A stretch of DNA of 64,000 nucleotides from Clostridia bacterium (GTDB lineage Bacteria > Bacillota > Clostridia > Oscillospirales > Acutalibacteraceae). How positions within the stretch are numbered: the stretch's first letter is position 1; the number at the start of each line of letters is the position of its first letter. The stretch spans positions 2,296 to 66,295 of the forward strand of contig JAFSIB010000071.1 in NCBI GenBank assembly GCA_017440005.1. The letters run 5' to 3'. Below are positions 6,660-59,317 of the stretch, piece by piece. A program made the translations under genes and the position numbers. The notes under the pieces were generated by a model. That model saw only the letters and a program-made list of their open reading frames with translations. It had not been told where the DNA came from and ran no database searches.

Positions 6660-6701
6660 CGGGTTCCATCTCCGCATAAGCATATAGCGGAGGGGATCAC
6701 G

Positions 6702-7397: not shown

Positions 7398-7399
7398 AA

Positions 7400-8749: not shown

Positions 8750-8759
8750 AATCAACGAA

Positions 8760-8790
8760 CAGGCAAACACAATGTGTTTGCCTGTTTTTT
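8760..8790 (+). terminator. Intrinsic terminator
   Basis: CAGGCAAACAC (8760-8770) pairs with GTGTTTGCCTG (8774-8784), followed by T6. Confidence 0.85.
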
Positions 8791-8858
8791 GTTGTTATAT
8801 TTTGAAGTTTCCTTCAAACACTACCAAGAGAAAAAGTGGAACCAAAGGAGGAAACGCC

Positions 8859-9788: not shown

Positions 9789-9791
9789 TCT

Positions 9792-17517: not shown

Positions 17518-17518
17518 T

Positions 17519-18463: not shown

Positions 18464-18483
18464 ACGGAAAGGAGAGAGAAGTT

Positions 18484-18945
18484 ATGGCATCTTACGGATC
18501 GGAAGCGTATGATCTGTCCATGTATGAACCCAAAGCAAGACTTCGTGCTCTCCCCGGAAAGAAAGCGACCAAAGCCGATAAACGGCGCGCGCGGTTGCAG
18601 AAATTGCTCAACACGTTGGCAACGGTTTTGGTTTCTTCGGTTGTGTTGGTGGTCATTGCCACGATGATCTCCAGTCAGGTTCGCCTGACCGAGATGAACA
18701 GCGCCATCAGTCAAGCGGAAACGGCATATAACGAGGCGGTGGGTGAAACCAAACGTCTCGAAAGTGAGCTCGCCGCGCAAACATCTGCACAGAGTGTGGA
18801 AGAGTATGCGCAGAGTGCAGGGTTTCGTCAGGTAGAATCCGGCCAGATCGATTATATTACGGTCACCCCGATTACGCCGAAGGCGGAAGAGGATACGGGG
18901 CTTTGGGCAACGATTATAGGCGCCCTCAAGGCGTGGTTGCAATAA
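18484..18945 (+). CDS. ftsL: Cell division protein FtsL-like (septum formation initiator)
   Basis: Basic N-terminus, a single TM segment, a coiled-coil region, and the conserved position between rsmH and the PBP gene. Confidence 0.6.
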   Translation: MASYGSEAYDLSMYEPKARLRALPGKKATKADKRRARLQKLLNTLATVLVSSVVLVVIATMISSQVRLTEMNSAISQAETAYNEAVGETKRLESELAAQTSAQSVEEYAQSAGFRQVESGQIDYITVTPITPKAEEDTGLWATIIGALKAWLQ

Positions 18946-19079
18946 GTGGGGCGGTTCTATATCGGGGATGCTTCGGCATACTATAGAACGTGCCTCGAAC
19001 GGTGAGAGTTGGGATGTTCGCGTCTTGACTCTCTTTTCATTCCACCACAAATCGGTACGATTCGAGCGAGGTGAACAGG

Positions 19080-21353: not shown

Positions 21354-21374
21354 TCCAAGAGAGGGCGCCTGTTC

Positions 21375-23654
21375 ATGAAACGGTTTCATCAACAGGACGT
21401 TTCAATGCGGGCTCCGTCCCGTCGGATGTGGCAGCGGTCGTTTATCATACTGGTGTTGATCGCGTTGTGCTTTGCACTGGTATGTGGGCGGTTGGCGATT
21501 TTACAACTCAGCGAACACGAAAAATGGCAGACGCTGGCGTCTGAGCAACAACTCAGCGATAGCGTGATCTCAGACAAACGCGGAACGATTTATGACCGCA
21601 ACGGCGTGGTGCTGGCGCAAAGTGTCGAGGTGGCGACGGTGATCATGATGCCGTCGGAAATTCCGGACGATGCGGCGCGGCAGACGATCTGTGAGGAATT
21701 GCCGCCGTTACTGGGGATCAATGCCGAGAAACTGAAAAAACAGACGCAAAAGGTCGGTTCGCGTTACGAGGTTGTGAAATCCAAGATCGGCAACGAGGAA
21801 CGAACGGCGTTTATCGCTTGGGTGAAAAAGCACGGGTTCACCGGCGTTTTCCGTGTCATTCAGGATTATAAACGGGAATATCCAAACGGCAGTACGTTAT
21901 CCTGTGTATTGGGATTTACGGGTACCGATAACACCGGTCTTGAGGGGTTGGAAGCAAAGTACAACACCCTGCTTGCCGGCAAAGCGGGGCGCGTGATCAC
22001 CACCAAAAACGGGTGGGGGGACGCGTTCCCGAACGATATTCAGTATGAAACGACGGTCGATGCCGAAGAGGGCGAAAGTTTGTACCTAACGATCGACGTT
22101 ACCGTACAGAAGATCGTGGAAAAGTATTTGGAAATAGCGGTTGCCGAGACCGGCGCCGCCAACCGCGCGACGGCGATCGTCATGGATGTGCGCACCGACG
22201 AGGTGCTTGCCATGGCGACCAAAGGCGATTATGACCTCAATGCGCCGCGCGTGTTGCAAAACCCCGATACGACGGCGCAGATCGCGTTGCTTTCAGGAGA
22301 TGAACAGTCGAGCGCTTTGTTGACCGCGTTGCAAAAGCAATGGAAAAACAAGGCGGTATCGGAGTTTTATGAACCGGGTTCGGTATTTAAGATCTTTACG
22401 GCTTCTGCCGCGTTGCAGGAAGGTTTAATATCGGAAACTTCCCATTTTTTCTGTAACGGAACGTATACGATGGCGGGTGTGCGGACCATGAAATGTCACG
22501 TGTATCCGCGCAGTCACGGTGATCAGTCGCTGGCAGAAGCGATCTCACATTCCTGCAACCCCGCTTTCATGAAGATCGGGTCACTGCTGGGCACCGCGTT
22601 GTTCCCCCGTTACCACGAAGCGTTTGGATTCACGGCACCGACCGGCATTGATATGTTGGGCGAGGCGCGGGTGACTGCTTCATTGTATCACACCGCTTCC
22701 GCCATCACGGCGGTGGACGTTGCCACGTCCTCGATCGGGCAGACGTTTAAGGTGACACCGATCCAGATGATCACCGGTGTGTGTGCGGTGGCAAGTGACG
22801 GTAACCTGCGCACTCCGTACGTTGCCGCGCGCAGTGTGGCGGCAGACGGTACCGAAACGGTGCTGAATAAACCAACGGTCGTGCGGCGCGTGATCGCCGC
22901 TGAAACGGCATCACGCATGTGCGCCATGCTGGAAGGCGTGGTGGACGGCGGCGGTGCCAAAAATGCGTATATCGCGGGATACCGCGTGGCAGGAAAGACC
23001 GGTACATCGGAAAAAACCGACCAAGCCGCCGCGGCTAACGGCAGGAAAAATGCCGTGGCATCGTTTTGCGGATTTGCTCCGGCGAACGATCCGCGCGTGG
23101 CGGTGATCGTGATGATCGATGAACCGCAGACACAGATCCGTTACGGCGGCACGCTGGCGGCACCTGTGGCGCAAAAGATTCTGGCGGATGTGTTGCCGCA
23201 CCTCGGTGTGCAACCGCAATACACGGAAGATCAGTTGAAAACGTTACAGTGTACCGTGCCCGATGTGATCGGTAAAACCGTGTCGGCGGCACAAACCGCG
23301 CTCACGGCGGCGGGATTGCGCTATCGCGTGGCGGGCGGCGGAACGGTGACGGCGCAAACGCCGTCTGCCGGAACACTCATGCAAAAAGACGGCACGGTGG
23401 TACTCTATACCGAAGAACAGCCGACTGAACAAGTGAACGTTCCTCATACGGTGGGCAAACCGTTATCGGAGGCGAACCGTCTGTTGACAGATGCAGGACT
23501 TAACGTACGGATCATCGGTTGGACGGGAGAGGTTGGCGACCGCAATACCGGCGGGCAAGCGGTGGTCGCGGAGCAATCCATATTGGAGAACAACACGGTT
23601 GATAAAGGAACTGTTGTGGAGATCCGTCTGATATACACAGATGCGATCGAATAG
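21375..23654 (+). CDS. Class B penicillin-binding protein, SpoVD-like paralogue with PASTA domains
   Basis: Same architecture as the upstream PBP (SVFK, SCN, KTGT, two PASTA repeats). Occupies the B. subtilis spoVD position. Confidence 0.9.
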   Translation: MKRFHQQDVSMRAPSRRMWQRSFIILVLIALCFALVCGRLAILQLSEHEKWQTLASEQQLSDSVISDKRGTIYDRNGVVLAQSVEVATVIMMPSEIPDDAARQTICEELPPLLGINAEKLKKQTQKVGSRYEVVKSKIGNEERTAFIAWVKKHGFTGVFRVIQDYKREYPNGSTLSCVLGFTGTDNTGLEGLEAKYNTLLAGKAGRVITTKNGWGDAFPNDIQYETTVDAEEGESLYLTIDVTVQKIVEKYLEIAVAETGAANRATAIVMDVRTDEVLAMATKGDYDLNAPRVLQNPDTTAQIALLSGDEQSSALLTALQKQWKNKAVSEFYEPGSVFKIFTASAALQEGLISETSHFFCNGTYTMAGVRTMKCHVYPRSHGDQSLAEAISHSCNPAFMKIGSLLGTALFPRYHEAFGFTAPTGIDMLGEARVTASLYHTASAITAVDVATSSIGQTFKVTPIQMITGVCAVASDGNLRTPYVAARSVAADGTETVLNKPTVVRRVIAAETASRMCAMLEGVVDGGGAKNAYIAGYRVAGKTGTSEKTDQAAAANGRKNAVASFCGFAPANDPRVAVIVMIDEPQTQIRYGGTLAAPVAQKILADVLPHLGVQPQYTEDQLKTLQCTVPDVIGKTVSAAQTALTAAGLRYRVAGGGTVTAQTPSAGTLMQKDGTVVLYTEEQPTEQVNVPHTVGKPLSEANRLLTDAGLNVRIIGWTGEVGDRNTGGQAVVAEQSILENNTVDKGTVVEIRLIYTDAIE

Positions 23655-23665
23655 AGGTGGTTACG

Positions 23666-25096
23666 ATGAAACTGACAGAATTGTTACAAGCGATCGGGGC
23701 GACAGGGTTCTGCGAACCCGTGGAAGTCACGGCGTTGTGCCGCGATTCGCGCAAGATCGTGCAAGGGTGTTTGTTCGTGTGCATTGCCGGCACCAAGATC
23801 GACAGTCATCAGTTTGCGGCGCAGGCGTTGGAAAACGGCGCGGCAGCGGTTGTGTGTGAGCGGGATCTGGGGTTGCCGCGGCAGATTTTGGTGAAAGACG
23901 GCCGTGCGGCATGGGCGCAACTGTGCGCCAATTGGTTTGGCCGTCCTGCACAAAAACTGCGCATGATCGGTATCACGGGTACAAACGGCAAGACCAGCAC
24001 GTCATTTTTGCTCAAAGGGATTTTGGAAAAAGCGGGATACCGCGTCGGTTTGATCGGCACGATCAAAAATATGATCGGGGAGCACGAGGTGCACAGCGGT
24101 CAGACCACGCCCGACCCGTATGAACTGCAGGAGTTACTGGCGGCGATGGTGGACGCGGGTTGTGCGTATGCGGTGATGGAAGTTTCCTCGCACGCACTGG
24201 ATCAGGACCGCGTGACGGGATGTCGGTTTGCGGCAGCCGTGTTTACCAATTTAACGCAGGATCATTTGGATTATCACGGTACGATGGAAGCCTACGCCGC
24301 CGCGAAAAAACGGTTGTTTACCATCAGCGATTTGGCGGTTTTGAATGTAGATGATGCGTGGTATTCGGTGATGCGTGACGAAATGCCGTGTGAGGCGGTC
24401 ACGTACTCCACCGAGCGAAACGATGCCACGTACACGGCACACAACCTGCGCCAGCGACCGGACGGTATCGATTTTGAATTGGTAACGACCGGTGCGATCG
24501 GTCGTGTGAAACTCAAAACACCGGGACGGTTTTCCGCGTATAATGCGTTGGCGGCGGCTTCGTGTGCGTTGGCGCTCGGCATTGAGTTCGATAATGTAGT
24601 GGACGCCTTGCGCGATGCCAACATCATCAAAGGTCGTGCGGAAGTGGTGCCGACGGGACGCGATTTTACGGTTGTAATTGACTATGCGCACACCCCTGAC
24701 GGGTTACAGAATATTTGTGAAACGCTGAATGCTTGTAAAGCGGGGCGGCTTGTGACGGTGTTCGGTTGCGGCGGAGACCGCGACCGTACCAAACGGCCGA
24801 AAATGGCTGCCACGGCAGCGGCGCTTTCGGATTTTGTGGTGGTAACGTCCGATAATCCGCGCACCGAAGATCCGCACGCGATCATTGAGGATATTTTGAC
24901 CGGAATGGCGGATACCGCCACACCGTACAAAGTGATCGAAGACCGTGTGGAAGCGATCCGTTGGGCGATTCACAATGCCCAAGCGGGCGATACGATCCTG
25001 CTTGCGGGTAAAGGCCATGAAACGTATCAGATCTTAAAGAGCGGCACCATTCACCTGGATGAGCGGGAAGTGGTGGCAGAGGCGCTAAATATTTAA
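23666..25096 (+). CDS. murE: UDP-N-acetylmuramoyl-L-alanyl-D-glutamate--2,6-diaminopimelate ligase
   Basis: GITGTNGKTS P-loop. The DNPR motif (VVTSDNPRTEDP) indicates meso-DAP specificity. Confidence 0.95.
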   Translation: MKLTELLQAIGATGFCEPVEVTALCRDSRKIVQGCLFVCIAGTKIDSHQFAAQALENGAAAVVCERDLGLPRQILVKDGRAAWAQLCANWFGRPAQKLRMIGITGTNGKTSTSFLLKGILEKAGYRVGLIGTIKNMIGEHEVHSGQTTPDPYELQELLAAMVDAGCAYAVMEVSSHALDQDRVTGCRFAAAVFTNLTQDHLDYHGTMEAYAAAKKRLFTISDLAVLNVDDAWYSVMRDEMPCEAVTYSTERNDATYTAHNLRQRPDGIDFELVTTGAIGRVKLKTPGRFSAYNALAAASCALALGIEFDNVVDALRDANIIKGRAEVVPTGRDFTVVIDYAHTPDGLQNICETLNACKAGRLVTVFGCGGDRDRTKRPKMAATAAALSDFVVVTSDNPRTEDPHAIIEDILTGMADTATPYKVIEDRVEAIRWAIHNAQAGDTILLAGKGHETYQILKSGTIHLDEREVVAEALNI

Positions 25097-25112
25097 ATGA
25101 GGAGTACAAAAG

Positions 25113-26129
25113 ATGGGTATACTGATATCGGCGGTGTGGATCGTAACGGCGCTGGGCGCATACTTTTTATCGGAACGGATGGGGAAAAAACTGATTCCGG
25201 TGTTGCATCGGCTCAAGTTCGGACAGACGATCCGTGATGAAGGTCCCGCATGGCATAAGAATAAGCAAGGTACACCAACCATGGGCGGTATCATTTTCAT
25301 TGGTGCGATGCTGATCGTGGTGTTGGTTGTGATGCTCATCTGCCAGTTGTTCCTACCCCAAAAGGTGGTAACAGATGCGGATACCGTTTCCACCGTTACG
25401 CGCTTGTTCGCCGGTATCGTGATGGCGATCGGCTTTGGTGTGATCGGTTTTTTGGATGATTTCATCAAAGTGGTCAAAAAACGGAATTTAGGACTGACAA
25501 GCCGTCAAAAACTGCTGGGACAGATCCTGCTTTCAGGCGCGTATGCGATCGCGGTATACGCGACCGGCGGTGCGCAGATCCATATTCCGTTTTACGGTAT
25601 GTGGTTTGCGGGTATCTGGTATATCCCGATCACGGTATTCATTATTGTGGCGATGACCAATGCCACCAACCTGACCGACGGTGTTGACGGGTTGTGCGGT
25701 TCGGTTTCCGTGATCGTGTGTTTGTTCCTGTTGATTTTATGCGGTGACCGTTTGGGTTACGGAATCGTCACCGCGGCAACCGCCGGTGCGCTTGCGGGAT
25801 TTTTGGTATGGAATTTCCATCCCGCACGCGTGTTTATGGGCGATACGGGGTCGCTGTTTATCGGCGGTGTTCTCTGTGCGGTAGCGTTCGGTATCGGTCG
25901 GCCGCTTTTGTTGTTGCCGATGGGTATCGTATACGTGATGGAGACCCTTTCGGTGGTTTTACAGGTTTCGTATTTCAAATGGACTCACGGCAAACGTCTG
26001 TTTAAAATGAGTCCGTTGCATCATCATTTTGAGTTGTGCGGATGGAGCGAAAACAAGATCGTATTGGCGGCGGCAATGACCACCGTGATCGGTTGCGTGA
26101 TCGGTCTGACCGTGACGGTTTTAGCATAA
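25113..26129 (+). CDS. mraY: Phospho-N-acetylmuramoyl-pentapeptide transferase
   Basis: KQGTPTMGG, NATNLTDGVDGL and FMGDTGSL motifs, with 10 TM segments. Confidence 0.95.
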   Translation: MGILISAVWIVTALGAYFLSERMGKKLIPVLHRLKFGQTIRDEGPAWHKNKQGTPTMGGIIFIGAMLIVVLVVMLICQLFLPQKVVTDADTVSTVTRLFAGIVMAIGFGVIGFLDDFIKVVKKRNLGLTSRQKLLGQILLSGAYAIAVYATGGAQIHIPFYGMWFAGIWYIPITVFIIVAMTNATNLTDGVDGLCGSVSVIVCLFLLILCGDRLGYGIVTAATAGALAGFLVWNFHPARVFMGDTGSLFIGGVLCAVAFGIGRPLLLLPMGIVYVMETLSVVLQVSYFKWTHGKRLFKMSPLHHHFELCGWSENKIVLAAAMTTVIGCVIGLTVTVLA

Positions 26130-26165
26130 ATTGCTATACTGCAATATAAAAAAGGAGGAGCAATC

Positions 26166-27386
26166 ATGGCGAAGCGCGCAAAGACCTCGCAGGTAAAACA
26201 ATGGTTTTCCGCGCCGAAAAATGCACTGTCATCAAAAGGTCGCTTGTTTACGTTTTCGACCGGTTTTGACATGCCGTTTTTCATTCTGTTGATATTGGTT
26301 TTGGCTGTCGGTTTGGTGTGCTTATATTCTGCCAGCTTTGCCTATTCCTATTACCGTAACGGCGGGGACAGTTACCACTATATCAAACGGCAGTTGATCT
26401 ATGCGTTGCTCGGCGTGGCTGTCATGCTCGTTGTATCCACGGTGGATTATCACATCTTACACCGCTTTGCATGGTGGATCATGTTCGGCTCGTGGGGACT
26501 CTTGTTACTGGTTATGGCGTTGCCCACCATTCAGAACGTGCACCGTTGGATCCGTTTGGGACCCATTCAGATCCAACCGTCCGAAATTGCCAAATTTGCC
26601 ATCATTTTGTTATTTGCGCACTTGATCTCACAGTATCATCAGAACATGAAAGATCCGCGCAAAGGTTTCTGGCCGTTCATGGTGATCCTCGGCGTTACGT
26701 GTGCATTGGTCGTGATCGAGCCGCACTTGTCGGGTACCATCTTGCTGTTTGCGATCGGCATGGTCATGTTGTTTATCGGCGGTACCAGATGGCGGTATTT
26801 AGGTCTGGTTCTCGGTGCGGCGGTTGTGGGTGCCGTTGTGCTGGTCGTGTTCTTGGGATATGAGCAGGACCGTATCGACGTATGGTTGGATCCGGTTGGT
26901 GTGTATACGTCGGATATTGTATACGATTCGGGTCAGACCGGTCGTGACGCCGCCTGGCAGACGGTACAATCGCTGTATGCGATCGGGTCCGGCGGACTTA
27001 TGGGCGAGGGCCTTGGCAACTCGCGGCAAAAGCACTCATTCTTACCGGAACCGCAAAATGATTTTATTTTTTCCATTGTGTGTGAGGAACTCGGCTTTGT
27101 CGGTGCCGTGTTGATTATTTTGTTGTTTGCCGCGTTGGTATGGCGCGGATTTGTGGTTGGCATGCGGGCACCGGATAAGTTCGGTTCCATGCTGGCGATC
27201 GGGTTGATCGCGCAGATCGGCATCCAGGTGGTGTTTAACCTGGCGGTGGTGACCAATTCCTTCCCGAACACGGGTATCAGTTTGCCGTTCTTCAGTTACG
27301 GCGGTTCGTCACTGATCATGCTGTTGGCGCAGATGGGTGTTATCTTGTCGATTTCCCGACAGTCGAAACAACAGGAGGGCGGTTGA
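26166..27386 (+). CDS. ftsW: SEDS-family peptidoglycan glycosyltransferase FtsW/SpoVE
   Basis: SEDS motifs QPSEIAK, FLPEPQNDFIFS and LPFFSYGGSS. Confidence 0.9.
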   Translation: MAKRAKTSQVKQWFSAPKNALSSKGRLFTFSTGFDMPFFILLILVLAVGLVCLYSASFAYSYYRNGGDSYHYIKRQLIYALLGVAVMLVVSTVDYHILHRFAWWIMFGSWGLLLLVMALPTIQNVHRWIRLGPIQIQPSEIAKFAIILLFAHLISQYHQNMKDPRKGFWPFMVILGVTCALVVIEPHLSGTILLFAIGMVMLFIGGTRWRYLGLVLGAAVVGAVVLVVFLGYEQDRIDVWLDPVGVYTSDIVYDSGQTGRDAAWQTVQSLYAIGSGGLMGEGLGNSRQKHSFLPEPQNDFIFSIVCEELGFVGAVLIILLFAALVWRGFVVGMRAPDKFGSMLAIGLIAQIGIQVVFNLAVVTNSFPNTGISLPFFSYGGSSLIMLLAQMGVILSISRQSKQQEGG

Positions 27387-27388
27387 CG

Positions 27389-28504
27389 ATGCGTGTACTG
27401 ATGGTTGGCGGCGGTACGGCGGGTCACATCAATCCCGCGCTTGCCATTGCCGATATCGTGAAAGAAAAACACCCCGAAGCCGAGATTCTGTTTGTGGGTG
27501 TTAAGGATAAAATGGAAACCACCTTGGTGCCGGCGGCAGGGTATCCGCTGAAAACCGTAACGGTGCAGGGATTCAAACGCAGTTTGGCACCGAAGGCGAT
27601 CGCGCACAATCTTTCGGCGGTGTACCACGCGGTAACAGCGGGGGCAGAAGCCAAACGCATTATCCGTGAATTCGCGCCGGATCTCGCAATCGGCACGGGC
27701 GGTTACGTGTGCGGTCCCGTCTTACAAAAGGCGGCGCGCATGGGTGTGCCGGTTTTGTTGCACGAATCCAATGCACTGCCGGGTGTAACCGTTAAAATGT
27801 TGGCACCGTCCGCAAAAGCCGTCATGGTCGGCGATGAAGCGGCGTGTAAACATTTGCCGGACGGGACGCGCGTTGTGGTGACGGGTAACCCGTTGCGCCG
27901 CGGATTTTCCACCATGGACCGCGAGATGGCACGGCGGGAACTCGGCGTGGATGAACGGCCGCTGGTGCTCAGTTTCGGCGGCAGTCTGGGTGCGCGGCAT
28001 CTGAACGAAGCCGTTGCCGGTGTGTTGGCAAAGAACCAACAAAAGCAGGCGATCCAGTTTATCGTGGGTACCGGCAGGGGCGAAAATTACGAACGGATGC
28101 AAGCCCTTCTTGCACAAAACGGCGTCGCGCCCGATGGGGTGCACGTGCGGATCCGTGATTATATTGACGATATGCCGCGGTGCATGGCGGCGGCGGATCT
28201 GGTGATCTCGCGTTGCGGTGCCATGACGATCAGTGAATTACCGGCAATGCAAAAGCCGTCTATATTGGTTCCGTCCCCGTACGTGGCGGAAAATCATCAG
28301 TATCACAACGCGCAAACCTTGGCAAAACGCGGGGCGGCGGTGTGTATTGAAGAAAAAGATTTGACAGCGGAGCGTTTGTGGGATACGATAGAACAAACGG
28401 TGTTAGATCCTGCCAAACTGACCGCGATGAGCAAAGCGGCGGGTGAGGCCGCCGTGTGGGATGCCGATGAACGGATCTATTCAGTAATCAGCGAACTGCT
28501 TTAA
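27389..28504 (+). CDS. murG: Undecaprenyldiphospho-muramoylpentapeptide beta-N-acetylglucosaminyltransferase
   Basis: MRVLMVGGGTAGHINPA N-terminus and the ISRCGAMTISEL motif. AGGAGGG RBS lies 9 nt before ATG 27389. Confidence 0.95.
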   Translation: MRVLMVGGGTAGHINPALAIADIVKEKHPEAEILFVGVKDKMETTLVPAAGYPLKTVTVQGFKRSLAPKAIAHNLSAVYHAVTAGAEAKRIIREFAPDLAIGTGGYVCGPVLQKAARMGVPVLLHESNALPGVTVKMLAPSAKAVMVGDEAACKHLPDGTRVVVTGNPLRRGFSTMDREMARRELGVDERPLVLSFGGSLGARHLNEAVAGVLAKNQQKQAIQFIVGTGRGENYERMQALLAQNGVAPDGVHVRIRDYIDDMPRCMAAADLVISRCGAMTISELPAMQKPSILVPSPYVAENHQYHNAQTLAKRGAAVCIEEKDLTAERLWDTIEQTVLDPAKLTAMSKAAGEAAVWDADERIYSVISELL

Positions 28505-28582
28505 TGTCACCTTTTTACCCGAAAATCATAAGATGGCGTATAAGGCCGAACGGTCGATTTCGGGGAATAGGGGTGGACGACG

Positions 28583-29839
28583 ATGTCAAAGTTGGTCATT
28601 GAAGGCGGGCGCCGTCTGAGCGGAGTCATACATATTCACGGAGCCAAAAACAGTGCGTTGCCGATCTTAGCGGCGGCGTATCTGGCGCAAGGACCGTGTG
28701 AGATCGAGAACTGTCCGTTGCTTTCGGACGTGCAGGCCGCAGGCAAGATCTTACAACACCTGGGGTGCACCGTCGAACGCGAAGAACATACGATGCGTGT
28801 AGACGCGTCCGAAGCGAGCGGGTTTACCGTTCCGGACGGACTGATGCGCGAAATGCGGTCGTCCATTGTCTTTTTGGGCGCGATTGCCGCGCGCACGGGC
28901 AAGGCAGAACTGTCGTTTCCCGGCGGCTGTGAATTGGGGCCGCGCCCCATTGATCAGCACTTGTCGGCATTGCGCCAACTGGGTTTGCAGATCTGCGAAG
29001 AGGGCGGGCGTCTGGAATGCCGTGTTAAAGGACGGCTGACGGGTTGCCCCATCTCCTTGTCTTTTCCGAGTGTCGGTGCCACCGAAAACATTTTGTTGGC
29101 GGCGGTAACGGCGCGGGGAACCACGACGATCATCAACGCCGCACGGGAACCGGAGATCGTGGATCTGTGTGATTTTTTGTGCGCGTGCGGTGCGCATATC
29201 CGCGGCGCGGGTGAGGGCACGATCGTGATCGACGGTGTGGAACGGTTGCACGGATGCCGTCATCGGGTGATTCCCGACCGCATTGAAACCGCCACGTATA
29301 TGGGCGCGGCGGCGATCACGGGCGGTTCGCTTTTGTTAAAGCAAGTCAAGTCCGAACACGTGCAGGCGATCATACCGGTTTTTGAAGAAGCCGGATGTCA
29401 AGTGGCGGTGTGGGGTGATGAACTGCTCATCAGCGCGCCGGGGAGGTTGCGGCGTGTGCACACGGTGCGTACGTTGCCGTATCCCGGATTCCCCACCGAT
29501 GCGCAGGCACTCATGATGGCGCCTATGTGCGTGGCAGACGGCACCAGTGTATTTATTGAAACCATCTTTGAAAGTCGTTATAAACACGTGTGTGAATTGA
29601 TGCGGATGGGCGCGCAGATCAAAGTGGAAGGGCGCGTTGCCGTGGTGGAAGGCGTTGCCGAGTTATTCGGTGCGCCGGTGGAATGTACCGATCTGCGCGG
29701 CGGTGCGGCTCTTGTGTTGGCGGCGCTTGCGGCGAACGGAACGACCGAGATCACCCAACTGCATCATTTGGAAAGAGGATATGAGGCGATGGCGCAAACG
29801 TTCTGCGGAGTGGGCGCCGCCGCTTATCTGCAAGAATAA
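28583..29839 (+). CDS. murA: UDP-N-acetylglucosamine 1-carboxyvinyltransferase
   Basis: VIHIHGAKNSALPILAAA. The active-site loop FPGGCELGPRPID retains the Cys. Confidence 0.95.
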   Translation: MSKLVIEGGRRLSGVIHIHGAKNSALPILAAAYLAQGPCEIENCPLLSDVQAAGKILQHLGCTVEREEHTMRVDASEASGFTVPDGLMREMRSSIVFLGAIAARTGKAELSFPGGCELGPRPIDQHLSALRQLGLQICEEGGRLECRVKGRLTGCPISLSFPSVGATENILLAAVTARGTTTIINAAREPEIVDLCDFLCACGAHIRGAGEGTIVIDGVERLHGCRHRVIPDRIETATYMGAAAITGGSLLLKQVKSEHVQAIIPVFEEAGCQVAVWGDELLISAPGRLRRVHTVRTLPYPGFPTDAQALMMAPMCVADGTSVFIETIFESRYKHVCELMRMGAQIKVEGRVAVVEGVAELFGAPVECTDLRGGAALVLAALAANGTTEITQLHHLERGYEAMAQTFCGVGAAAYLQE

Positions 29840-29857
29840 AAAAGACGGAGAGGACGC

Positions 29858-30772
29858 ATGAAAAAAAGGCGGTCACAACCGAAACGCCGAAACAGCCAGA
29901 AGCGAAGACGCAATCGCTTCCGGCTGTTTGTCGTGCTGTCAATTGTGAACATCGCCTTGCTCGTCCTCACAATTTTACTGTTGCCTGCGGCGTTGGACAC
30001 GCCGAAGACCGATGAAAACGGGAAACCGTCCCCGCTGGGGATCCGCAGTATCACGGTGGAGGGAAACACGGTATACGACAACGAAGCGATCATCGGTATC
30101 AGCGAACTGGAGATTGGGCAGAGCGTGTTTGCCGTCAACAAAGGGCAGATCGAAAAACGGTTGAAAAAAGAATTTGTATACGTGCGTGACGTGGCGGTGG
30201 ATCTCTCGTTCAAGCGCGACGTGACGTTACGCATCACGCAGGCGGAAGAAATGGGCGCGGTGTATGCGAACGGCGGCTGGGTGATCGTGGATGAAAACGG
30301 TATCGGCTTGCAAAAAGAACCGATCGAAAGTGAACGGCCGCTCAGACGCATGTATCTGAAAGGCGCGGGCACGCTGACCGATGAGATCGGCAAACAGGTG
30401 CTGGATGAACGGAGCCTTGCGATCATCGGTGAGATCTGTTCGGCATTTGAAACGTATGAGCTCGGTGAGATCAGCGAGATCGATATGAGTAATCTGAACG
30501 ATATTCGGGCAAACTGGAAAAACCAGATCACCATTGCGTTTGGTAACGATTCCAATCTGGCGTATGAAGTGGCGGTGGCGGCAACGTCCATTCCGAAAAT
30601 TTTGGCGCGGCACGGGCAGACAGCGACGGGGCTTCTCAACGTCAGTCAGTATTCCGATCCGACGGTGGAAACCCCCACCATTATTTTCACACCGTCCTCT
30701 TTATTGGATGATGAAACCAAAAAAGAGCCCTCTCAAACGCCTGAGGATTCGACAACTCCCACAAATAATTAA
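29858..30772 (+). CDS. ftsQ: Cell division protein FtsQ/DivIB
   Basis: Basic N-terminus, a single TM segment, a POTRA-like IRSITVEGNTVYDNEAI segment, and the position upstream of ftsZ. Confidence 0.75.
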   Translation: MKKRRSQPKRRNSQKRRRNRFRLFVVLSIVNIALLVLTILLLPAALDTPKTDENGKPSPLGIRSITVEGNTVYDNEAIIGISELEIGQSVFAVNKGQIEKRLKKEFVYVRDVAVDLSFKRDVTLRITQAEEMGAVYANGGWVIVDENGIGLQKEPIESERPLRRMYLKGAGTLTDEIGKQVLDERSLAIIGEICSAFETYELGEISEIDMSNLNDIRANWKNQITIAFGNDSNLAYEVAVAATSIPKILARHGQTATGLLNVSQYSDPTVETPTIIFTPSSLLDDETKKEPSQTPEDSTTPTNN

Positions 30773-30799
30773 AAAAACAAAAATTTTTCTAAAATACTG

Positions 30800-30842
30800 T
30801 TGAAATCGTGGGGTTGACATGGTAGAATTAAAGCAGTATAAT
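30800..30842 (+). promoter_or_regulatory. Two overlapping near-consensus sigma-A promoters upstream of ftsZ
   Basis: P1: TTGAAA (30800-30805), 17 nt, TGgTAGAAT (-10 at 30823-30828). P2: TTGACA (30814-30819), 17 nt, TATAAT (30837-30842). Confidence 0.55.
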
Positions 30843-30902
30843 GTACAGTGACTCTGTAAACGTAGATTAACTGTTGCGAAATAAAAGGTAGGAGGATGTT
30901 CC

Positions 30903-31967
30903 ATGAACTTTGAATACGATGATGAAGTCTTGGATACCGGCGTTCAAATAAAAGTAATCGGTGTCGGCGGCGGCGGCGGAAACGCCCTGAACCGCATGGT
31001 CACTGCCGGTGTAAAAGGCGTGGAATTCGTGGCGATCAACACGGATCACCAGGCTTTGTTGCGCTCTCAGGCGACAATTAAACTGCAAATCGGCGAAAAA
31101 TTGACACGCGGTATGGGTGCCGGCGCTAACCCCGAAAAAGGTCAGCGCGCTGCTGAAGAAAGCCGCGATGAGATTACGGCTGCGCTCAAAGGTACCGATA
31201 TGGTGTTCATCACCGCCGGTATGGGCGGCGGTACCGGTACCGGTGCGGCTCCCGTTGTTGCCGAGATTGCCCGTGATATGGGTATCCTGACGGTTGGTAT
31301 CGTTACCAAACCGTTTGCGTTTGAAGGCCGCCGCCGTATGGAGCAGGCGGAAAACGGTATTGCCATTCTGCGTGAGCACGTGGATAGCTTGGTGGTTATC
31401 CCCAACGAGCGTTTGAAACTGGTTACCGAGCAACGCATCACGTTGGCAAACGCGTTCCAGGCGGCAGACAGCGTTCTGCGTCAGGGCGTGCAGTCGATCT
31501 CGGAATTGATCACTGCCGAAGCGGTCATCAATCTCGACTTTGCCGACGTTACTGCGATCATGAAAGATGCCGGTTATGCTCACATGGGTATCGGCCGTGC
31601 TGAAGGTAAAGATAAGGCAGAAGCCGCGGCTCGCGAAGCGATCGCCAGCCCGCTGCTTGAGACCACCATCAACGGTGCTCGCGGCCTGATCATCAACGTT
31701 ACCGCTTCGCCGGATATCCCGCTTGAAGATGTGGATATTGCCTGTAACCTCATTTCCGAGGCGGCGCATCCGGATGTCAATACCATCTGGGGTCTGACCT
31801 TCAACGAGAACCTGGAAGACGAACTGTGCATCACGTTGGTTGCTACCGGTTTCTCGGCAGACGGTTCGTACGTCCCGCCCACGGAAGACGGTCGCGGCGG
31901 TACGGATTCCAGCGATTATGACGATGAGGATCTCCTCAACATGTTCCGCAGAAGACCGCAGGAATAA
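30903..31967 (+). CDS. ftsZ: Cell division protein FtsZ
   Basis: [13 protein letters not shown] and [13 protein letters not shown] tubulin signature. GGAGGA RBS. Confidence 0.97.
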
Positions 31968-40649: not shown

Positions 40650-40662
40650 TTATACTTAAAAG

Positions 40663-40696
40663 AAACCGTCCCGCCTCAAAAGAGGCGGGACGGTTT
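40663..40696. terminator. Bidirectional intrinsic terminator between convergent genes
   Basis: 15-bp stem: AAACCGTCCCGCCTC (40663-40677) pairs with GAGGCGGGACGGTTT (40682-40696). A-run upstream and T-run downstream. Confidence 0.85.
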
Positions 40697-40703
40697 TTGT
40701 TTA

Positions 40704-41435
40704 TTACCGTTGCCAAATACAAGGAATTTCCCCGCGTAAAGCGGCAAGGATGGTTTCGGGCGCGGCATCCGGCAATTCCAAAAAGGGACCGGCATCCTGA
40801 ATATCTTCCAAGCGATGCGCGTCCGAGTTTTGCAAAAGCGGTTTCCCTTGAATTTCCGGATACTGCGTTTTGAGTGTTTCCACATCGCCGCTTGCCGTGA
40901 TTTCCACAGCGGCAAATCCGAGCGGCGGCAGATCACCGAGTGAGGCGGTGACACTGTAAGACGGGCGGTCAATGTGTGCGGGGAACGCCACACCGCCAAA
41001 GGAACGTGCCAAGGTTGCTACACTGTCCACACTGATGGAGGAAGCGGTGGTGAGCAAAATATCACGCGTGCCGATCACACGGTCTTCGGCATCGCACAGC
41101 AGTTGGTCGCCGAAAATATCGGGACGGTTGGGGATCGGCGGCAACAGCGGCGCCACGTGTTGTTCAAACCGTTCGGCGGCTTCAACCGAGGGGAACAGAC
41201 ACACCACGTGTGCTTCTTCTGCGGTGCACAGTTCCATGCCCGGCAAAAACGTGATGCCGAGTTCCTTGGCGACCGATGCGGCGGCGGCACAGTTGCCGCA
41301 GGTGTTATGATCGGTCAGGGCAATGGCAGACAACCCCGCCAACTGTGCCATGTTGACGAGGTTGTTGGGTGTCATTTCACTGTCACCGCAAGGGGACAGA
41401 CAAGAATGTATATGAAAATCGTAATAAATTTTCAT
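40704..41435 (-). CDS. PHP-domain metal-dependent phosphoesterase
   Basis: MKIYYDFHIHSCLSPCGD N-terminus, ALTDHNT and AHIDRP motifs of the PHP fold. Confidence 0.8.
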   Translation of the reverse strand: MKIYYDFHIHSCLSPCGDSEMTPNNLVNMAQLAGLSAIALTDHNTCGNCAAAASVAKELGITFLPGMELCTAEEAHVVCLFPSVEAAERFEQHVAPLLPPIPNRPDIFGDQLLCDAEDRVIGTRDILLTTASSISVDSVATLARSFGGVAFPAHIDRPSYSVTASLGDLPPLGFAAVEITASGDVETLKTQYPEIQGKPLLQNSDAHRLEDIQDAGPFLELPDAAPETILAALRGEIPCIWQR

Positions 41436-41448
41436 AAAACCCCTTCGA

Positions 41449-41778
41449 TCAAGAAAGTTTTTGTGATAAGGTTACTGCCAATTCATACGCGGAACGGGTA
41501 CTGCGTAAAATGGTGACATCTTCCATCTCGGCGCGTGTTTTTGCCGCATCGTCCAACGCGGCGTTTTCACAAAGCACCAGGCACGCCACGTCTGCCAATA
41601 CGCATACGGCAACGGCGTTGACGTTACCCATTACACTGAACCAGGCGTCGCCCGCTTTGGCGCGGCCCATGACCCAACTGAGCAGGTCACCGCAGTATCC
41701 GCCGGTGACTAAGCGGGTGAGATCACCCGCGGTCAGCACGTCCAGTTCCAAATCGTCGATCAAGTCTTTAACGGTCAT
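41449..41778 (-). CDS. DRTGG-domain protein
   Basis: LVTGGYCGDLLSWVM block typical of DRTGG single-domain proteins. ATG 41778 follows GGGAGGG and overlaps the upstream stop by 11 nt. An alternative start is at 41823. Confidence 0.7.
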   Translation of the reverse strand: MTVKDLIDDLELDVLTAGDLTRLVTGGYCGDLLSWVMGRAKAGDAWFSVMGNVNAVAVCVLADVACLVLCENAALDDAAKTRAEMEDVTILRSTRSAYELAVTLSQKLS

Positions 41779-43018
41779 TGTTACATCCCTCCCGCAGGCG
41801 GAAACAGTCACTTTCTTTGGCAAAACCGCGCACGATATCTTCGGCTAATGCACGGCAGGTGGGAGCGCCGCAGGCACCGCAATCGAGTTGCGGCAGTTTG
41901 GCGCATACGTCATCCACCTGTTGCATCATGCGCATGGCATCACTGATGTTGCCCGCCAGGTGCAATGCGGGATTCTCTTTAAGGGTCTGTGACCAGTTGA
42001 GGGCGCGCAAATCGCCGAAATCTTCAGCGCGGTTACACGACACCGGTAAATATTTGCGCAAGCGGGTGATCCGCGCACGGGCAACGTATCCGTTTTCCGC
42101 TGTGAATACACCGCCGACACAACCGCCTGCACAGGCGCTCAGTTCAATGAAATCCAGATCGGCTAATTTCTCATCTTCCAATTCTTCCAACACACGGATG
42201 ACGTTTTGAATACCGTCTGCCGCCAAGTGGTTTTCGTTGAGAAGGCCCGCGGCTTCCCCACCGATAAAGGACCAACTGGTACCGATCAAACCGGAATTGG
42301 ACAAATGCTCCACCTCTTCCAGATGGTTCATCTCATGTACCAATTTGGGATAAATATCCGCAATGGACAGTACGCCGTTGACGTGCGAGTGCGAATCACC
42401 GATGGGGAAGCGCACGTCGGTTACTTTGGCGGGGCACGGTGAGATGAAGAAAATACCGATCTCATCCGGTGCGTAGCCGGTCTGTGCCATGGCGCGTTGA
42501 CGCGCCAGCGCGGCGGCGACTTCCATAGGTGCTTTCATCGGCAATACGTGATCGCACAGATCCGGAAAACGGATCTGAATAAGCCGCACAACTGCGGGGC
42601 AGGCGGAACTGATGACCGGTTTCTTGAGTAGTCCGTCCGCCATGAGTTTGCGCGTGGCATCGGATACGATCTCCGCGCCGCGCGATACTTCAAACACCTG
42701 GTCAAAGCCGAGCTTAATAAGTCCGGATAACACCACGTCGATATCATCCAGATTATGAAATTGCCCATACAGTGCCGGTGCGGGCAGGGCAATGGTATAA
42801 CGATAATTTTCCAAAGCCGCCAGAGTATCGTGACGGGCTTTTTTGGCATGGTGAGGACAGACGCGGATACATTCGCCGCAATCGATGCAACGGGCATCCG
42901 TGATCACGGCTTTTCCGTCGCGCACGCGGATGGCTTGCGTGGGACACCGCTTCACACAGTGGGTGCAACCCACACATTTATCGCGATCCAACGTAACGGA
43001 ATGTAAAATACGTTCCAT
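41768..43018 (-). CDS. [FeFe]-hydrogenase-like Fe-S protein, putative sensory type (HydS-like, no PAS domain)
   Basis: Two CxxCxxCxxxCP motifs. H-cluster-like motifs SSACPAV, SPCPAK and ELSACAGGCVGG. C-terminal CGACGAPTC-x16-C. Confidence 0.8.
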   Translation of the reverse strand: MERILHSVTLDRDKCVGCTHCVKRCPTQAIRVRDGKAVITDARCIDCGECIRVCPHHAKKARHDTLAALENYRYTIALPAPALYGQFHNLDDIDVVLSGLIKLGFDQVFEVSRGAEIVSDATRKLMADGLLKKPVISSACPAVVRLIQIRFPDLCDHVLPMKAPMEVAAALARQRAMAQTGYAPDEIGIFFISPCPAKVTDVRFPIGDSHSHVNGVLSIADIYPKLVHEMNHLEEVEHLSNSGLIGTSWSFIGGEAAGLLNENHLAADGIQNVIRVLEELEDEKLADLDFIELSACAGGCVGGVFTAENGYVARARITRLRKYLPVSCNRAEDFGDLRALNWSQTLKENPALHLAGNISDAMRMMQQVDDVCAKLPQLDCGACGAPTCRALAEDIVRGFAKESDCFRLREGCNNDR

Positions 43019-43035
43019 ACGAGCACTCCTTGTAA

Positions 43036-43449
43036 TCAGGCAACACGTACCGTCATGGTGATGGTCGTACCTTTGCCGAGTTCGGTGGCAATATCCAACG
43101 AATCGGTATATTTTTTAATGTTCGGAAGACCCATGCCCGCGCCGAATCCCAAATTGCGCACGGTTTCGGGGGCGGTGGAGAAGCCTTCCTGCATGGCTTT
43201 ATCAATATCGGGGATGCCGGGACCGCGGTCGCTGAGCACCATGGTGATGAGATCGGGTTCAACGTCCACATTGATGTCACCGCCGTCTGCGTGGATCACC
43301 ATGTTGATCTCGCCCTCATACATCGCGATGGCGACGCGGCGAATCACTTCCGGCGGAAAACCCAACCGCTTTAACGTGGCTTTGACCGCACCGGAGGCTT
43401 CACCCGCGCGGGTGAAATCGTCCCCGGATACTTCATAATGGTATTTCAC
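43036..43449 (-). CDS. Anti-sigma-factor-type Ser/Thr protein kinase (RsbW/SpoIIAB-like GHKL ATPase)
   Basis: 137 aa. N-box YEGEINMVIHA, G1 DRGPGIPD, G2 GFGAGMGL. GTG start after GAGGTG. Confidence 0.8.
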   Translation of the reverse strand: MKYHYEVSGDDFTRAGEASGAVKATLKRLGFPPEVIRRVAIAMYEGEINMVIHADGGDINVDVEPDLITMVLSDRGPGIPDIDKAMQEGFSTAPETVRNLGFGAGMGLPNIKKYTDSLDIATELGKGTTITMTVRVA

Positions 43450-43460
43450 GTGCGGTCACC

Positions 43461-43808
43461 TCACTGTTTGTCGCCGCCGGTTAAACCGCTTTGATACAAC
43501 AGACCGCAAGCGGTAAACATACGCAACGGTGTTTTCATCAGGACAATACCGAACTCTTCAGCCAAAGCGATCATCTCGGCGGTCGGTTCTTTACCGCGGA
43601 CAAATACGATGCACAACATGTCCATCATTTCCGCGGTGCGTACCACCTGCGTGTTGACCAGACCTGACAACAAAACGGACTGATCTTTCACAAAGGCCAG
43701 CACGTCACTCATCATATCGCTGCCGCAAGCATTGTGCACTTCGGCATCCAGATTGTTGCCGCATACGATCTCGGCTTTCAAAATTTTTTGTACATCTGCA
43801 ATTGTCAT
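43461..43808 (-). CDS. DRTGG-domain protein
   Basis: 115 aa. SDVLAF...VLLSGLVNTQVVRTAEMMD...IVFVRGKEP pattern typical of DRTGG. AAGGTGGGA RBS. Confidence 0.7.
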   Translation of the reverse strand: MTIADVQKILKAEIVCGNNLDAEVHNACGSDMMSDVLAFVKDQSVLLSGLVNTQVVRTAEMMDMLCIVFVRGKEPTAEMIALAEEFGIVLMKTPLRMFTACGLLYQSGLTGGDKQ

Positions 43809-43847: not shown

Positions 43848-43876
43848 AGTATACTGTATATCCCCGAAATATGCAA
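43848..43876 (-). promoter_or_regulatory. Sigma-A type promoter for the DRTGG-kinase-HydS-like operon
   Basis: On the minus strand: TTGCAT (43876-43871), 17 nt, TATACT (43853-43848). Confidence 0.45.
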
Positions 43877-43919
43877 GAGGACGAATTGTTAAAAGTTTGA
43901 CAAAGGCCGTAAGTTTTGG

Positions 43920-58162: not shown

Positions 58163-59317
58163 GTGTACTGGGCAACGGTACAGATCGAATGTGAGGGCGG
58201 TTTCCCGGAACGGTTTTTGAACGAAGCGCGTAAACGGGAGATCGCTTTGTGGGATATTACACGGCGGGATATTTCACTGTTTTGTCGATGCCGAGCGGAT
58301 GATTACCGCTTCTTACGCCCGGTGGCAAAGGCGGCATCGGTGCGGATGCGTGTGCGCAAACGCCAAGGAATGTGGTTTCACATTCGCCCGTTTCGGTATC
58401 GGTTCGGGTGGGTTTGCGGGATGGTGTTGTTTGCGGTAGTCTTGCAATTGCTGTCTGCCCGCATCTGGACGGTGCGTGTAAACGGGAACGAGCAGGTGCC
58501 CGAGAGTGCGATCCGCGAGGTGCTACGCCCGCTCGGTGTATACGAGGGGGCGGTATTTGACAAGGTGGATCTGCCGCAGTTGCAGTTGACGGCGTTGGAA
58601 CAGTTACCGCAACTGGTGTGGCTTACCGTCAATCAAACCGGCAGTGTGGCATACGTGGAAGTGCGAGAACGGACACCATCCGAACCCATTACGTCAAACG
58701 AACCCGCCAACATTGTGGCATCGCGGGACGGGGTGATCGTTTCGATCGATTGCGAAAACGGTCAGGCGGCGGTCAAGGTGGGGGATGCCGTTACCGAGGG
58801 AAGTTTGCTGATCGGCGGTGTGGTGGACAGTAAAGTCGGACCGCTTTTAAAACATGCACAGGGTACGGTGTTGGCACGCACCGAACGCGAGCTTGCAATA
58901 TCCGTTCCGTTTGAAGAAACGGTGACGGCGGAGAAACCGTTTCCCAAGGTGCGCCCTTCGTTGTATGTGCTCGGCGTGCGGTTTCCTCTGTATACGTCGG
59001 GTGAACCGTGGCGCAACGCCACCACCACGATGCACTTGTTGCGCGCGTACGGCAAAACGTTACCGATCGGTATTGAGGTGCAAAAACGAGAAGAACAGGA
59101 AACGGTCACCGTGGTGCGCAACGAGCAAGAAACGTATGAAGAAGCCGTGGCACGGTTGGCGCTCGCCCGTTCGGAATGGGGGGATACCATACAAGTACAA
59201 GAGGAACGTATTACCGCTACCCAAACCGCAGACGGGTGGACCGTTTGCGGGCAATATACCTGCGTGGAGCCGATCGGTTTATGGCAATCCTTGCAAATGC
59301 ACGAGAAAAAGGAGTGA
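58163..59317 (+). CDS. yqfD: Sporulation protein YqfD
   Basis: 384 aa with a central TM segment, and the conserved yqfC-yqfD-phoH order seen in Bacillus and Clostridia. Confidence 0.8.
   Translation: MYWATVQIECEGGFPERFLNEARKREIALWDITRRDISLFCRCRADDYRFLRPVAKAASVRMRVRKRQGMWFHIRPFRYRFGWVCGMVLFAVVLQLLSARIWTVRVNGNEQVPESAIREVLRPLGVYEGAVFDKVDLPQLQLTALEQLPQLVWLTVNQTGSVAYVEVRERTPSEPITSNEPANIVASRDGVIVSIDCENGQAAVKVGDAVTEGSLLIGGVVDSKVGPLLKHAQGTVLARTERELAISVPFEETVTAEKPFPKVRPSLYVLGVRFPLYTSGEPWRNATTTMHLLRAYGKTLPIGIEVQKREEQETVTVVRNEQETYEEAVARLALARSEWGDTIQVQEERITATQTADGWTVCGQYTCVEPIGLWQSLQMHEKKE

Follow-up and report, generated by a model that had tools for sequence, protein, structure and literature searches.

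The closest described relative of the system reported here is TamHydS, a group D (M2e) putative sensory [FeFe]-hydrogenase from Thermoanaerobacter mathranii that binds the [2Fe] cofactor, turns over slowly, and combines high H2 affinity with CO tolerance (PMC8163306). In M2e enzymes the proton-relay Cys is replaced, and the residue equivalent to M353 of the hydrogenase CpI becomes Ser or Thr (PMC8163306). Their genes have protein kinase genes nearby and bifurcating hydrogenases downstream, which was the basis for calling M2e enzymes sensory in 2012 (PMC3561251), and this proximity was remarked on again for TamHydS (PMC8163306). For group C HydS/HfsB proteins, a genetic association has been described with genes for Ser/Thr kinases and phosphatases, with catalytic hydrogenases, and with Rex (PMC5707799, PMC11837493, PMC8163306). 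The TamHydS authors asked how a sensor without a PAS domain transmits its signal (PMC8163306), and an involvement of the C-terminal cluster in signaling has been suggested (PMC8163306, PMC13104023). Here we analyzed a five-gene operon at positions 40,704 to 43,808 of a 64-kb stretch of an Acutalibacteraceae genome (Clostridia bacterium, assembly GCA_017440005.1, contig JAFSIB010000071.1, positions 2,296 to 66,295), hereafter the window, which encodes a HydS-like protein together with a GHKL-family ATPase, two DRTGG-family proteins, and a PHP-family phosphoesterase. An earlier note on this DNA had supposed that the function of this neighborhood had not been worked out. The neighborhood is not unstudied, as M2e genes near kinases and bifurcating hydrogenases are published; group D signal transduction is indeed still called unresolved in the searchable literature (PMC8163306, PMC13104023).

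On balance, we favor the reading that the operon is a conserved regulatory cassette of a group D putative H2-sensing [FeFe]-hydrogenase, here detached from its usual partner enzyme, and that its output is the HydABC hydrogenase. In anaerobes of the gut, the rumen, and industry, the balance of fermentation is steered by the partial pressure of H2. The locus is a hydABC-unlinked example of a known group D cassette, one of thousands, and no categorically new system; the cassette is ancient and common, and long-sequenced model thermophiles carry it. What we add is a definition of the four partners, a natural DRTGG::kinase fusion, links to Rex, and a census of hydABC-linked and unlinked cassettes, which are leads and not a solved mechanism. 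The features of the operon are as follows, with products in amino acids (aa) and distances in nucleotides (nt).

43461-43808, minus strand: DRTGG1, a 115-aa single-domain DRTGG-family protein (Pfam), likely partner of the kinase
43036-43449, minus strand: SpoIIAB/RsbW-like GHKL ATPase and putative Ser/Thr kinase, 137 aa, GTG start (Pfam, PDB relatives)
41768-43018, minus strand: group D (M2e) HydS-type [FeFe]-hydrogenase homolog, 416 aa (Pfam, NCBIfam, and PDB matches)
41449-41778, minus strand: DRTGG2, a 109-aa paralog of DRTGG1 whose start overlaps the hydS stop by 11 nt
40704-41435, minus strand: PHP-family metal-dependent phosphoesterase, 243 aa (Pfam PHP)
43848-43876, minus strand: candidate sigma-70-type promoter read directly from the sequence, TTGCAT (43876-43871), 17-nt spacer, TATACT (43853-43848)
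40661-40698, both strands: bidirectional intrinsic terminator, common to the operon and a convergent NhaC-type antiporter gene

The tight packing, order, and strand of the five genes are as the earlier note described them, and its intergenic gaps of 11, 17, -11, and 13 nt were reproduced exactly from the sequence; a Shine-Dalgarno sequence precedes every start codon. The list of open reading frames (ORFs) gives the coordinates above for all genes except the fourth, listed as 41449-41823, in which the ATG at 41778 yields the 109-aa product. Independent gene calls on two metagenome contigs with an identical HydS sequence gave the same product sizes of 115, 137, 416, 109, and 243 aa. The promoter hexamers named in the note are present and plausibly serve as the promoter of the operon; they are missing from the list produced by a stricter consensus scan. 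A scan of the operon leader for RNA elements found none. At the other end, the bidirectional terminator was confirmed as a hairpin that scores on both strands, with a stem of 15-17 bp, 10 GC pairs, and T-runs on both strands.

HydS, the central protein of the operon

The 416-aa protein matches two Fer4 domains, Fe_hyd_lg_C (1.7e-30), and the PF04060 FeS domain (1.4e-12, residues 375-405) in Pfam. The motifs quoted for it in the earlier note all lie where they had been placed: CxxCxxCxxxCP at residues 15 and 44, the H-cluster motifs SSACPAV at 137, SPCPAK at 193, and ELSACAGGCVGG at 292, and an exact Cx2Cx4Cx16C spanning 380-405 (C380/C383/C388/C405). Pfam gave no match to a PAS domain in HydS, and the last Cys lies only 11 residues before the end of the protein. 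Its best PDB sequence matches are [FeFe]-hydrogenases, and alignment to these, which the note had proposed, pairs C140, C195, C296, and C300 with the H-cluster ligand cysteines C300, C355, C499, and C503 of CpI and shows that K198 (K358 of CpI) is retained. The substitutions are A139 at the proton-relay Cys (C299 of CpI), S193 at M353, and S294 at M497. These alignments and motifs show the H-cluster site of HydS to be complete and its three accessory [4Fe-4S] sites to be retained.

To compare the protein with TamHydS directly, we rebuilt the TamHydS sequence from the codon-optimized gene in the supplementary information of PMC13104023, fixing frameshifts from optical character recognition by eye. 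Used as a query, the rebuilt protein found Thermoanaerobacter proteins that are 96% identical to it and a database sequence, P0121, that is 99% identical. Full-length identity between the window HydS and P0121 is 53%, and the two have an identical KKPVISSACPAVVRL segment and the FFISPC motif (with Ser at M353 of CpI) in common. They also share a C-terminal LDCGxCGxPTCRALAEDIV...DC block with two Asp-Cys pairs, and two such pairs are conserved in group D (PMC13104023). Identity to group A3 HydA is only about 23%. With its four H-cluster cysteines, accessory motifs, lack of a PAS domain, and A139 plus S193, the protein has the features of group D (M2e), and the group-D-like, PAS-less reading of the earlier note holds on the shared SSACPAV, ISPC, and DCGxCGxPTC...DC signatures. 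Judged by identity, motifs, and five-gene context, the 416-aa protein appears to be a group D HydS ortholog. The family to which it belongs is large, with at least 8000 clusters at E <= 1e-10 (all 8000 scored candidates passed).

The degeneracy of the TSCCPxW, MPCxxKxxE, and ExMxCxxGCxxGG motifs in this protein could instead point to a Nar1/Narf-like or otherwise cofactor-less Fe-S protein without a diiron subcluster. We regard this as exceedingly improbable: the four H-cluster cysteines and K198 are all retained, the L1 motif is identical to that of P0121 within an overall identity of 53%, and TamHydS assembles a functional H-cluster (PMC8163306). A Nar1-like identity is thus disfavored on the TamHydS-like identity and the ligand cysteines that mark the protein as a HydS ortholog. 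Because it is orthologous to TamHydS, with the published properties of that enzyme, HydS is a probable H2-sensing [FeFe]-hydrogenase.

Conservation of the cassette and its linkage to hydABC

We assembled 83 loci, comprising 80 from Oscillospirales (one genome per species, uncultured or cultured, from Acutalibacteraceae, Ruminococcaceae, and relatives, the group to which the window evidently belongs) and three distant reference loci, and read gene order by tblastn with the five window proteins in the former and from gene tables in the latter. In this form of the co-occurrence check proposed in the earlier note, the order DRTGG1, kinase, HydS, DRTGG2, PHP was intact in 78 of the 83, which argues against chance. 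At the distant loci, all five genes recur with unchanged order and similar sizes in Thermoanaerobacter (where HydS is 96% identical to TamHydS), Caldicellulosiruptor bescii (CP001393), and Coprothermobacter. Gene order therefore shows the five genes traveling as a unit across Bacillota and Coprothermobacterota. In the searchable literature DRTGG or PHP genes are not discussed together with hydrogenases; Poudel et al. 2016, who reportedly analyzed regulatory genes near HydA, may list them. A 263-aa gene upstream of the Thermoanaerobacter cassette was considered as a regulator and rejected, as Pfam found no DNA-binding domain in it. In a close relative of the window, L002, a 158-aa gene with a YbaK/ProX-type aminoacyl-tRNA editing domain (PF04073, 1.5e-24) lies between DRTGG2 and PHP at 9581-10057; a gap of about 500 nt suggests the same insertion in L001, L004, L005, and L006, and the window, with its 13-nt gap, is without it.

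The cassette is frequently followed by the genes of one particular enzyme. hydABC lies directly downstream in 31 of the 83 loci (28 Oscillospirales genomes plus Thermoanaerobacter, C. bescii, and Coprothermobacter) and divergently upstream in a further 6; another 29, each with 1.5 kb or more of flank to either side, lack hydABC, and in 17 the flank is too short to judge. The cassette thus adjoins hydABC in 37 of 66 informative loci. The genes that follow PHP in the three distant loci are hydC (NuoE-like, 2Fe-2S), HATPase_c, a small thioredoxin-like ferredoxin gene (hydD), hydB (NuoF-like), and hydA (M3 type with a small-subunit domain), which together make up the electron-bifurcating HydABC hydrogenase. 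The gap between PHP and hydC is 110-170 nt in these loci and about 650 nt in the linked locus L010. The six divergent arrangements, in which cassette and hydABC diverge from a common intergenic region, are all in Oscillospirales (L052, L058, L071, L075, L076, and L078). Inside the hydABC operon, hydC and the small ferredoxin-like gene are always separated by a second, different GHKL gene (181-196 aa, HATPase_c plus HATPase_c_3):

L010, 11607-12167: second GHKL gene
L081, 12019-12564: second GHKL gene
L082, 12001-12558: second GHKL gene
L083, 12085-12675: second GHKL gene

The window and its nearest relatives, L001-L007, belong to the unlinked class, and in the window and in L002 the cassette lies beside serC/serA. 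No other hydrogenase, HydB, or HydC was found in the 64-kb window, and among its ORFs of at least 180 aa there was no hydEFG, sigma factor, STAS, or transcription factor gene. The earlier claim that the operon has no encoded output therefore stands locally, as none of STAS, sigma factor, transcription factor, or hydrogenase occurs among the larger ORFs of the window; it does not stand for the family, in which hydABC adjoins so many cassettes. Given this linkage in 37 of the 66 informative loci, HydABC is the likely output of the cassette. The 29 unlinked loci suggest at the same time that HydABC may not be the only target. The cassette is detached from hydABC in about half of the Oscillospirales species examined, which bears on whether it acts post-translationally or more broadly.

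The same linkage can be read differently. HydS might be no H2 sensor at all but a slow catalytic or redox-poising hydrogenase, or a sensor of ferredoxin/NADH redox state, with its partners acting as assembly, protection, or repair factors of [FeFe]-hydrogenase. TamHydS does catalyze reversible H+/H2 interconversion, slowly (PMC8163306), the function of group D was left undefined in a 2024 survey (PMC11216029), and in most loci the cassette lies beside hydABC and not beside a transcription factor. We nevertheless consider this improbable. A139 stands in place of the proton-relay Cys and Ser in place of M353, substitutions found throughout the M2e enzymes (PMC8163306); a phosphoesterase and a GHKL ATPase whose kinase-type ATP site is intact typify signaling, not cluster assembly; and in 29 loci the cassette has been kept with no hydrogenase next to it.

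Partner proteins, Rex, and the proposed signaling route

The 137-aa GHKL protein matches Pfam HATPase_c_2 (5e-12) and has a Bergerat-fold ATP site with an N-box Asn, DxGxG, and a Gly-rich G2 box. The N-box (E45, E47, N49), G1 (D74-x-G76-x-G78), and G2 (G101-FGAGMGLPN110) are invariant in 83 orthologs. Its closest solved relatives are SpoIIAB (1til, 6e-9) and RsbW (0.025), which bears out the earlier assignment to the SpoIIAB/RsbW type. It scored 56.7 bits against TIGR01925 spIIAB, for which the cut-off is 135, and 22.7 bits against RsbW, for which it is 145. We describe the protein as SpoIIAB-like in its predicted fold and do not class it as an anti-sigma factor, because it falls below the family cut-offs and is without STAS and sigma partners. 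Classical anti-sigma switching, in which it would sequester a distant sigma factor while the DRTGG proteins replaced STAS and PHP replaced PP2C, draws on these structural relatives, both of them anti-sigma factors, and on the presence of two small antagonist-sized proteins and one phosphoesterase, which fit partner-switching logic. It seems very unlikely to us, since the scores lie far under the anti-sigma family cut-offs, neither the annotated ORFs of the window nor the four distant loci with gene tables contain a sigma factor gene, and the cassette is linked to hydABC and, once, to rex, but never to a sigma factor.

The two small proteins that accompany this kinase are clearly paralogs by profile comparison. 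DRTGG1 scored 25.9 bits against Pfam DRTGG (PF07085), just above the gathering cut-off of 25.2, and DRTGG2 scored 21.6 bits, under it; orthologs at both positions match PF07085. Profile-profile alignment of the two families gave a probability of 99.8% (E 2.4e-30, 19% identity), colinear over 108 columns, with a common D-[ML]-[ML]-S-x-V motif. The eponymous D-R-T-G-G residues were not found in either, as the GDR position reads SGLVN in DRTGG1 and SVMGN in DRTGG2, and the two appear to form a divergent DRTGG subfamily. Invariant residues are C28, G29, D31, S34, D35, N52, Q54, R57, T58, D63, C66, R71-G72-K73, and C101-G102 in DRTGG1 and D31, S34, N52, and N54 in DRTGG2. Of the DRTGG1 cysteines, C28, C66, and C101 are conserved in 98-100% of 83 orthologs, and C28 and C101 are kept across phyla. 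An exhaustive search of a 50%-identity library placed 1381 clusters in the DRTGG1 family at E<=1e-3, nearly all of them stand-alone proteins of about 115-125 aa.

Two hits of this search, of 270 and 275 aa, were DRTGG::HATPase_c_2 fusions. For one of them, three cluster members occur across at least nine contigs deposited at NCBI (Thermovenabulum sp.), JGI, ENA, and Logan, and with such independent sources it is not an assembly artifact. The locus of the fusion (L086) reads rex, [DRTGG::kinase], HydS, DRTGG, PHP, hydC, HATPase_c, small gene, hydB, hydA:

L086 (ENA ERZ1756073, Thermovenabulum-like), 6372-10288: DRTGG::HATPase_c_2 fusion (270 aa) replacing the first two cassette genes

Together, the natural fusion and the strict co-occurrence of the genes support, on a Rosetta-stone basis, the idea that DRTGG1 and the kinase act together.

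The fifth product matches Pfam PF02811 PHP (6e-10), and its metal ligands D6, H8, H10, D42-H43, E68, E73, H76, H154, D205, and H207 are invariant in 79 orthologs. So is an unusual C16 beside HxH, within an H-x-H-S-x-L-S-P-C-G motif. This Cys and those of DRTGG1 could be metal, cluster, or redox sites. The only significant matches of the PHP protein to solved structures were the pAp phosphatase Cv1693 (2yb1), the phosphoesterase 3e0f, and the 5'-3' exoribonuclease 7ug9, with alignments confined to the N-terminal ~75 residues; its best NCBIfam matches, to the TrlF PHP domain, nucleoside bisphosphate phosphatase, and RNase RNM, are all under the family cut-offs. Of the kinase/phosphoesterase pair proposed earlier, the PHP phosphoesterase therefore stands; a protein-phosphatase role does not follow, as the solved matches are only nucleotide phosphoesterases. 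Such a role within a kinase/phosphatase pair is an assumption.

These relatives raise the alternative of a nucleotide-signal module, in which PHP would hydrolyze a nucleotide akin to pAp, an oligoribonucleotide, or a dinucleotide, the DRTGG proteins would be nucleotide-binding regulators, the GHKL protein would be an ATPase or clamp, and HydS a redox gate. A nucleotide-binding role is attributed to the regulatory, DRTGG-containing parts of CBS-pyrophosphatases and Pta. The sole PDB sequence similarity of DRTGG1, a weak one, is to the DRTGG insert of a CBS-pyrophosphatase (3l2b/3l31), and, if the fold is Rossmann-like, its invariant GSD, G-L-x-N, RGK, and CG would lie at the C-terminal edge of the predicted strands, where such folds usually have their ligand pocket. 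However, the PHP matches cover only the N-terminal part and lie under every family cut-off, the nearest relative of the GHKL protein, SpoIIAB, is a true protein Ser kinase, the cassette encodes no nucleotide cyclase or synthetase, and a nucleotide-binding function of DRTGG domains comes from the CBS-pyrophosphatase literature. We therefore think a nucleotide signal unlikely.

A further link is to the redox repressor Rex. When the window was scanned with the Rex operator consensus, which we take to be TTGTNAANNNNTTNACAA, one site was the sole match at <=1 mismatch, and it had 0 mismatches:

43886-43903: Rex-type operator-like palindrome, reading TTGTCAAACTTTTAACAA on the minus strand, 10 nt upstream of the -35 box

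The site also fits the degenerate pattern TTGTTAAnnnnTTAACAA of a Rex regulon operator. Putative Rex sites of T. saccharolyticum are of the same form (PMC5886521). L001 and L002, the closest relatives, each have a Rex-like box at this position (-97), and boxes were found upstream of hydC in 9 of the 37 linked loci, including Thermoanaerobacter; L052 and L078 have a single box between the divergent cassette and hydABC operons. Of the 21 Rex-like boxes in 1.14 Mb of loci, 13 lie immediately upstream of the cassette or hydC, a portion that makes up ~5% of the sequence. In L086 a perfect box (TTGTTAAAAATTTAACAA) at 6269 lies about 100 nt upstream of rex, and rex precedes the DRTGG::kinase fusion gene and overlaps it by 4 nt, which ties the cassette to Rex. 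No rex was found in the window by tblastn with the L086 Rex protein, and none adjoins the cassette in the 80 Oscillospirales loci (0/80); L086 is the only such case. The predicted box in the window may serve either of two divergent promoters, that of the cassette or that of serC.

In the mechanism that we propose for an H2-sensing cassette, H2 would react at the slow, proton-relay-deficient H-cluster of HydS and thereby set the redox state of the C-terminal [4Fe-4S] cluster. The SpoIIAB-like ATPase/kinase, in complex with the DRTGG proteins, would read the state of this cluster. The DRTGG proteins may be phospho-acceptors, with the Ser of the D-[ML]-[ML]-S motif as candidate, or ligand-binding adaptors, and the PHP phosphoesterase would reset the signal. 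DRTGG2 and PHP, which co-occur with the other genes, would complete the module in roles that we infer. The output would be the activity or synthesis of a bifurcating HydABC encoded elsewhere in the genome, within a Rex/NADH redox regulon; we place it there because of the hydABC linkage in 37 of the 66 informative loci. A more ambitious version, which we put forward tentatively as a possibility, holds that the DRTGG proteins and PHP are the missing transducers of PAS-less group D sensors. They would form a new type of partner-switching module with DRTGG in place of STAS, PHP in place of PP2C, and the C-terminal [4Fe-4S] cluster gating the kinase, and the unlinked form might control more than HydABC, such as wider fermentation and redox metabolism with Rex.

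Several points weigh against a sensory cassette with HydABC as its output. The papers examined all call the sensory role of group D putative, and no known experiment ties a group D enzyme to signaling. Neither in the window nor in its closest relatives is hydABC within reach of the cassette, and about 44% of informative loci (29/66) are unlinked. Among the partners, the GHKL protein lies far under the SpoIIAB and RsbW family cut-offs and has no STAS partner, the GDR/TGG residues of the DRTGG family are absent from both DRTGG proteins, and the significant relatives of PHP are nucleotide phosphoesterases, not protein phosphatases. As for Rex, the box in the window lies in an intergenic region common to the divergent serC and is conserved only in L001 and L002, and most unlinked cassettes are without one.

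Surroundings of the operon and comparison with known systems

The convergent NhaC-family Na+/H+ antiporter-like gene lies directly downstream of a lysine riboswitch (RF00168, 38609-38773, plus strand, 84 bits, E 1.7e-20), and it is probably a lysine-regulated transporter; the ORF start listed at 38721 falls within the riboswitch itself, and the product predicted by gene callers is shorter, at 602 aa. Elsewhere, the window holds a complete dcw cluster (17486-31967, plus strand) with mraW, two genes for PASTA-containing penicillin-binding proteins, murE, mraY, ftsW, murG, a murA-like gene, ftsQ, and ftsZ, and sporulation genes (SpoIID-like, 1219-2196; yqfD, 58163-59317) that mark a core region of a spore-forming Clostridia chromosome. 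Other genes are housekeeping: radA, uvrC, trmD, ffh, era, and recO.

The regulatory hydrogenase HoxBC, with HoxJ and HoxA in Ralstonia/Cupriavidus, offers the concept of a slow, inhibitor-tolerant hydrogenase as a kinase-coupled H2 sensor, and there the coupled kinase controls hydrogenase expression (PMC5707799, PMC8163306). The families are unrelated, with a [NiFe] versus an [FeFe] center, and HoxJ is a PAS histidine kinase that works with a response regulator, for which there is no equivalent pair here. The SpoIIAB-SpoIIAA-SpoIIE and RsbW-RsbV-RsbU modules resemble the cassette in combining a small single-domain GHKL Ser-kinase-like protein with small proteins and a phosphoesterase, but the window cassette is without STAS, sigma factor, or PP2C and has DRTGG and PHP partners instead. 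The DRTGG domains of CBS-pyrophosphatases and Pta (PF07085) belong to a homologous fold family, judging from the Pfam match and the weak similarity to 3l2b/3l31. The cassette copies differ in being stand-alone proteins of 109-115 aa, in occurring as two paralogs, in the replacement of GDR/TGG, and in the conserved cysteines of DRTGG1.

Nearer to the present system are the group C HydS/HfsB proteins (HydS of Thermotoga maritima and Ruminococcus albus, and hfsABCD of Thermoanaerobacterium), which are likewise putative H2 sensors without the proton-relay Cys and with a C-terminal four-Cys cluster. Group C combines a PAS domain with a PP2C-type serine phosphatase, whereas the window cassette has no PAS domain, a PHP-type phosphoesterase, and two DRTGG proteins. 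The hfsABCD operon, whose HfsB carries a PAS domain and which includes a serine phosphatase, belongs to group C and was accordingly rejected as a match.

The closest match is the Thermoanaerobacter locus. TamHydS has the same two [4Fe-4S] motifs, H-domain, and Cx2Cx4Cx16C and no PAS domain, together with an identical SSACPAV, Ser at M353 of CpI, and the Asp-Cys pairs at the C-terminal cluster, within the 53% identity given above. The position of M497 of CpI is Ser in the window HydS and Leu in TamHydS, and the C-terminus of TamHydS extends 19 residues beyond that of the window protein. Around it the genes for DRTGG, HATPase_c_2, HydS, DRTGG, and PHP follow in the same order in both loci. The cassettes of Thermoanaerobacter, C. 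bescii, and Coprothermobacter lead into the hydC operon, whereas that of the window leads to a terminator and the antiporter gene, with no hydrogenase partner in its 64 kb.

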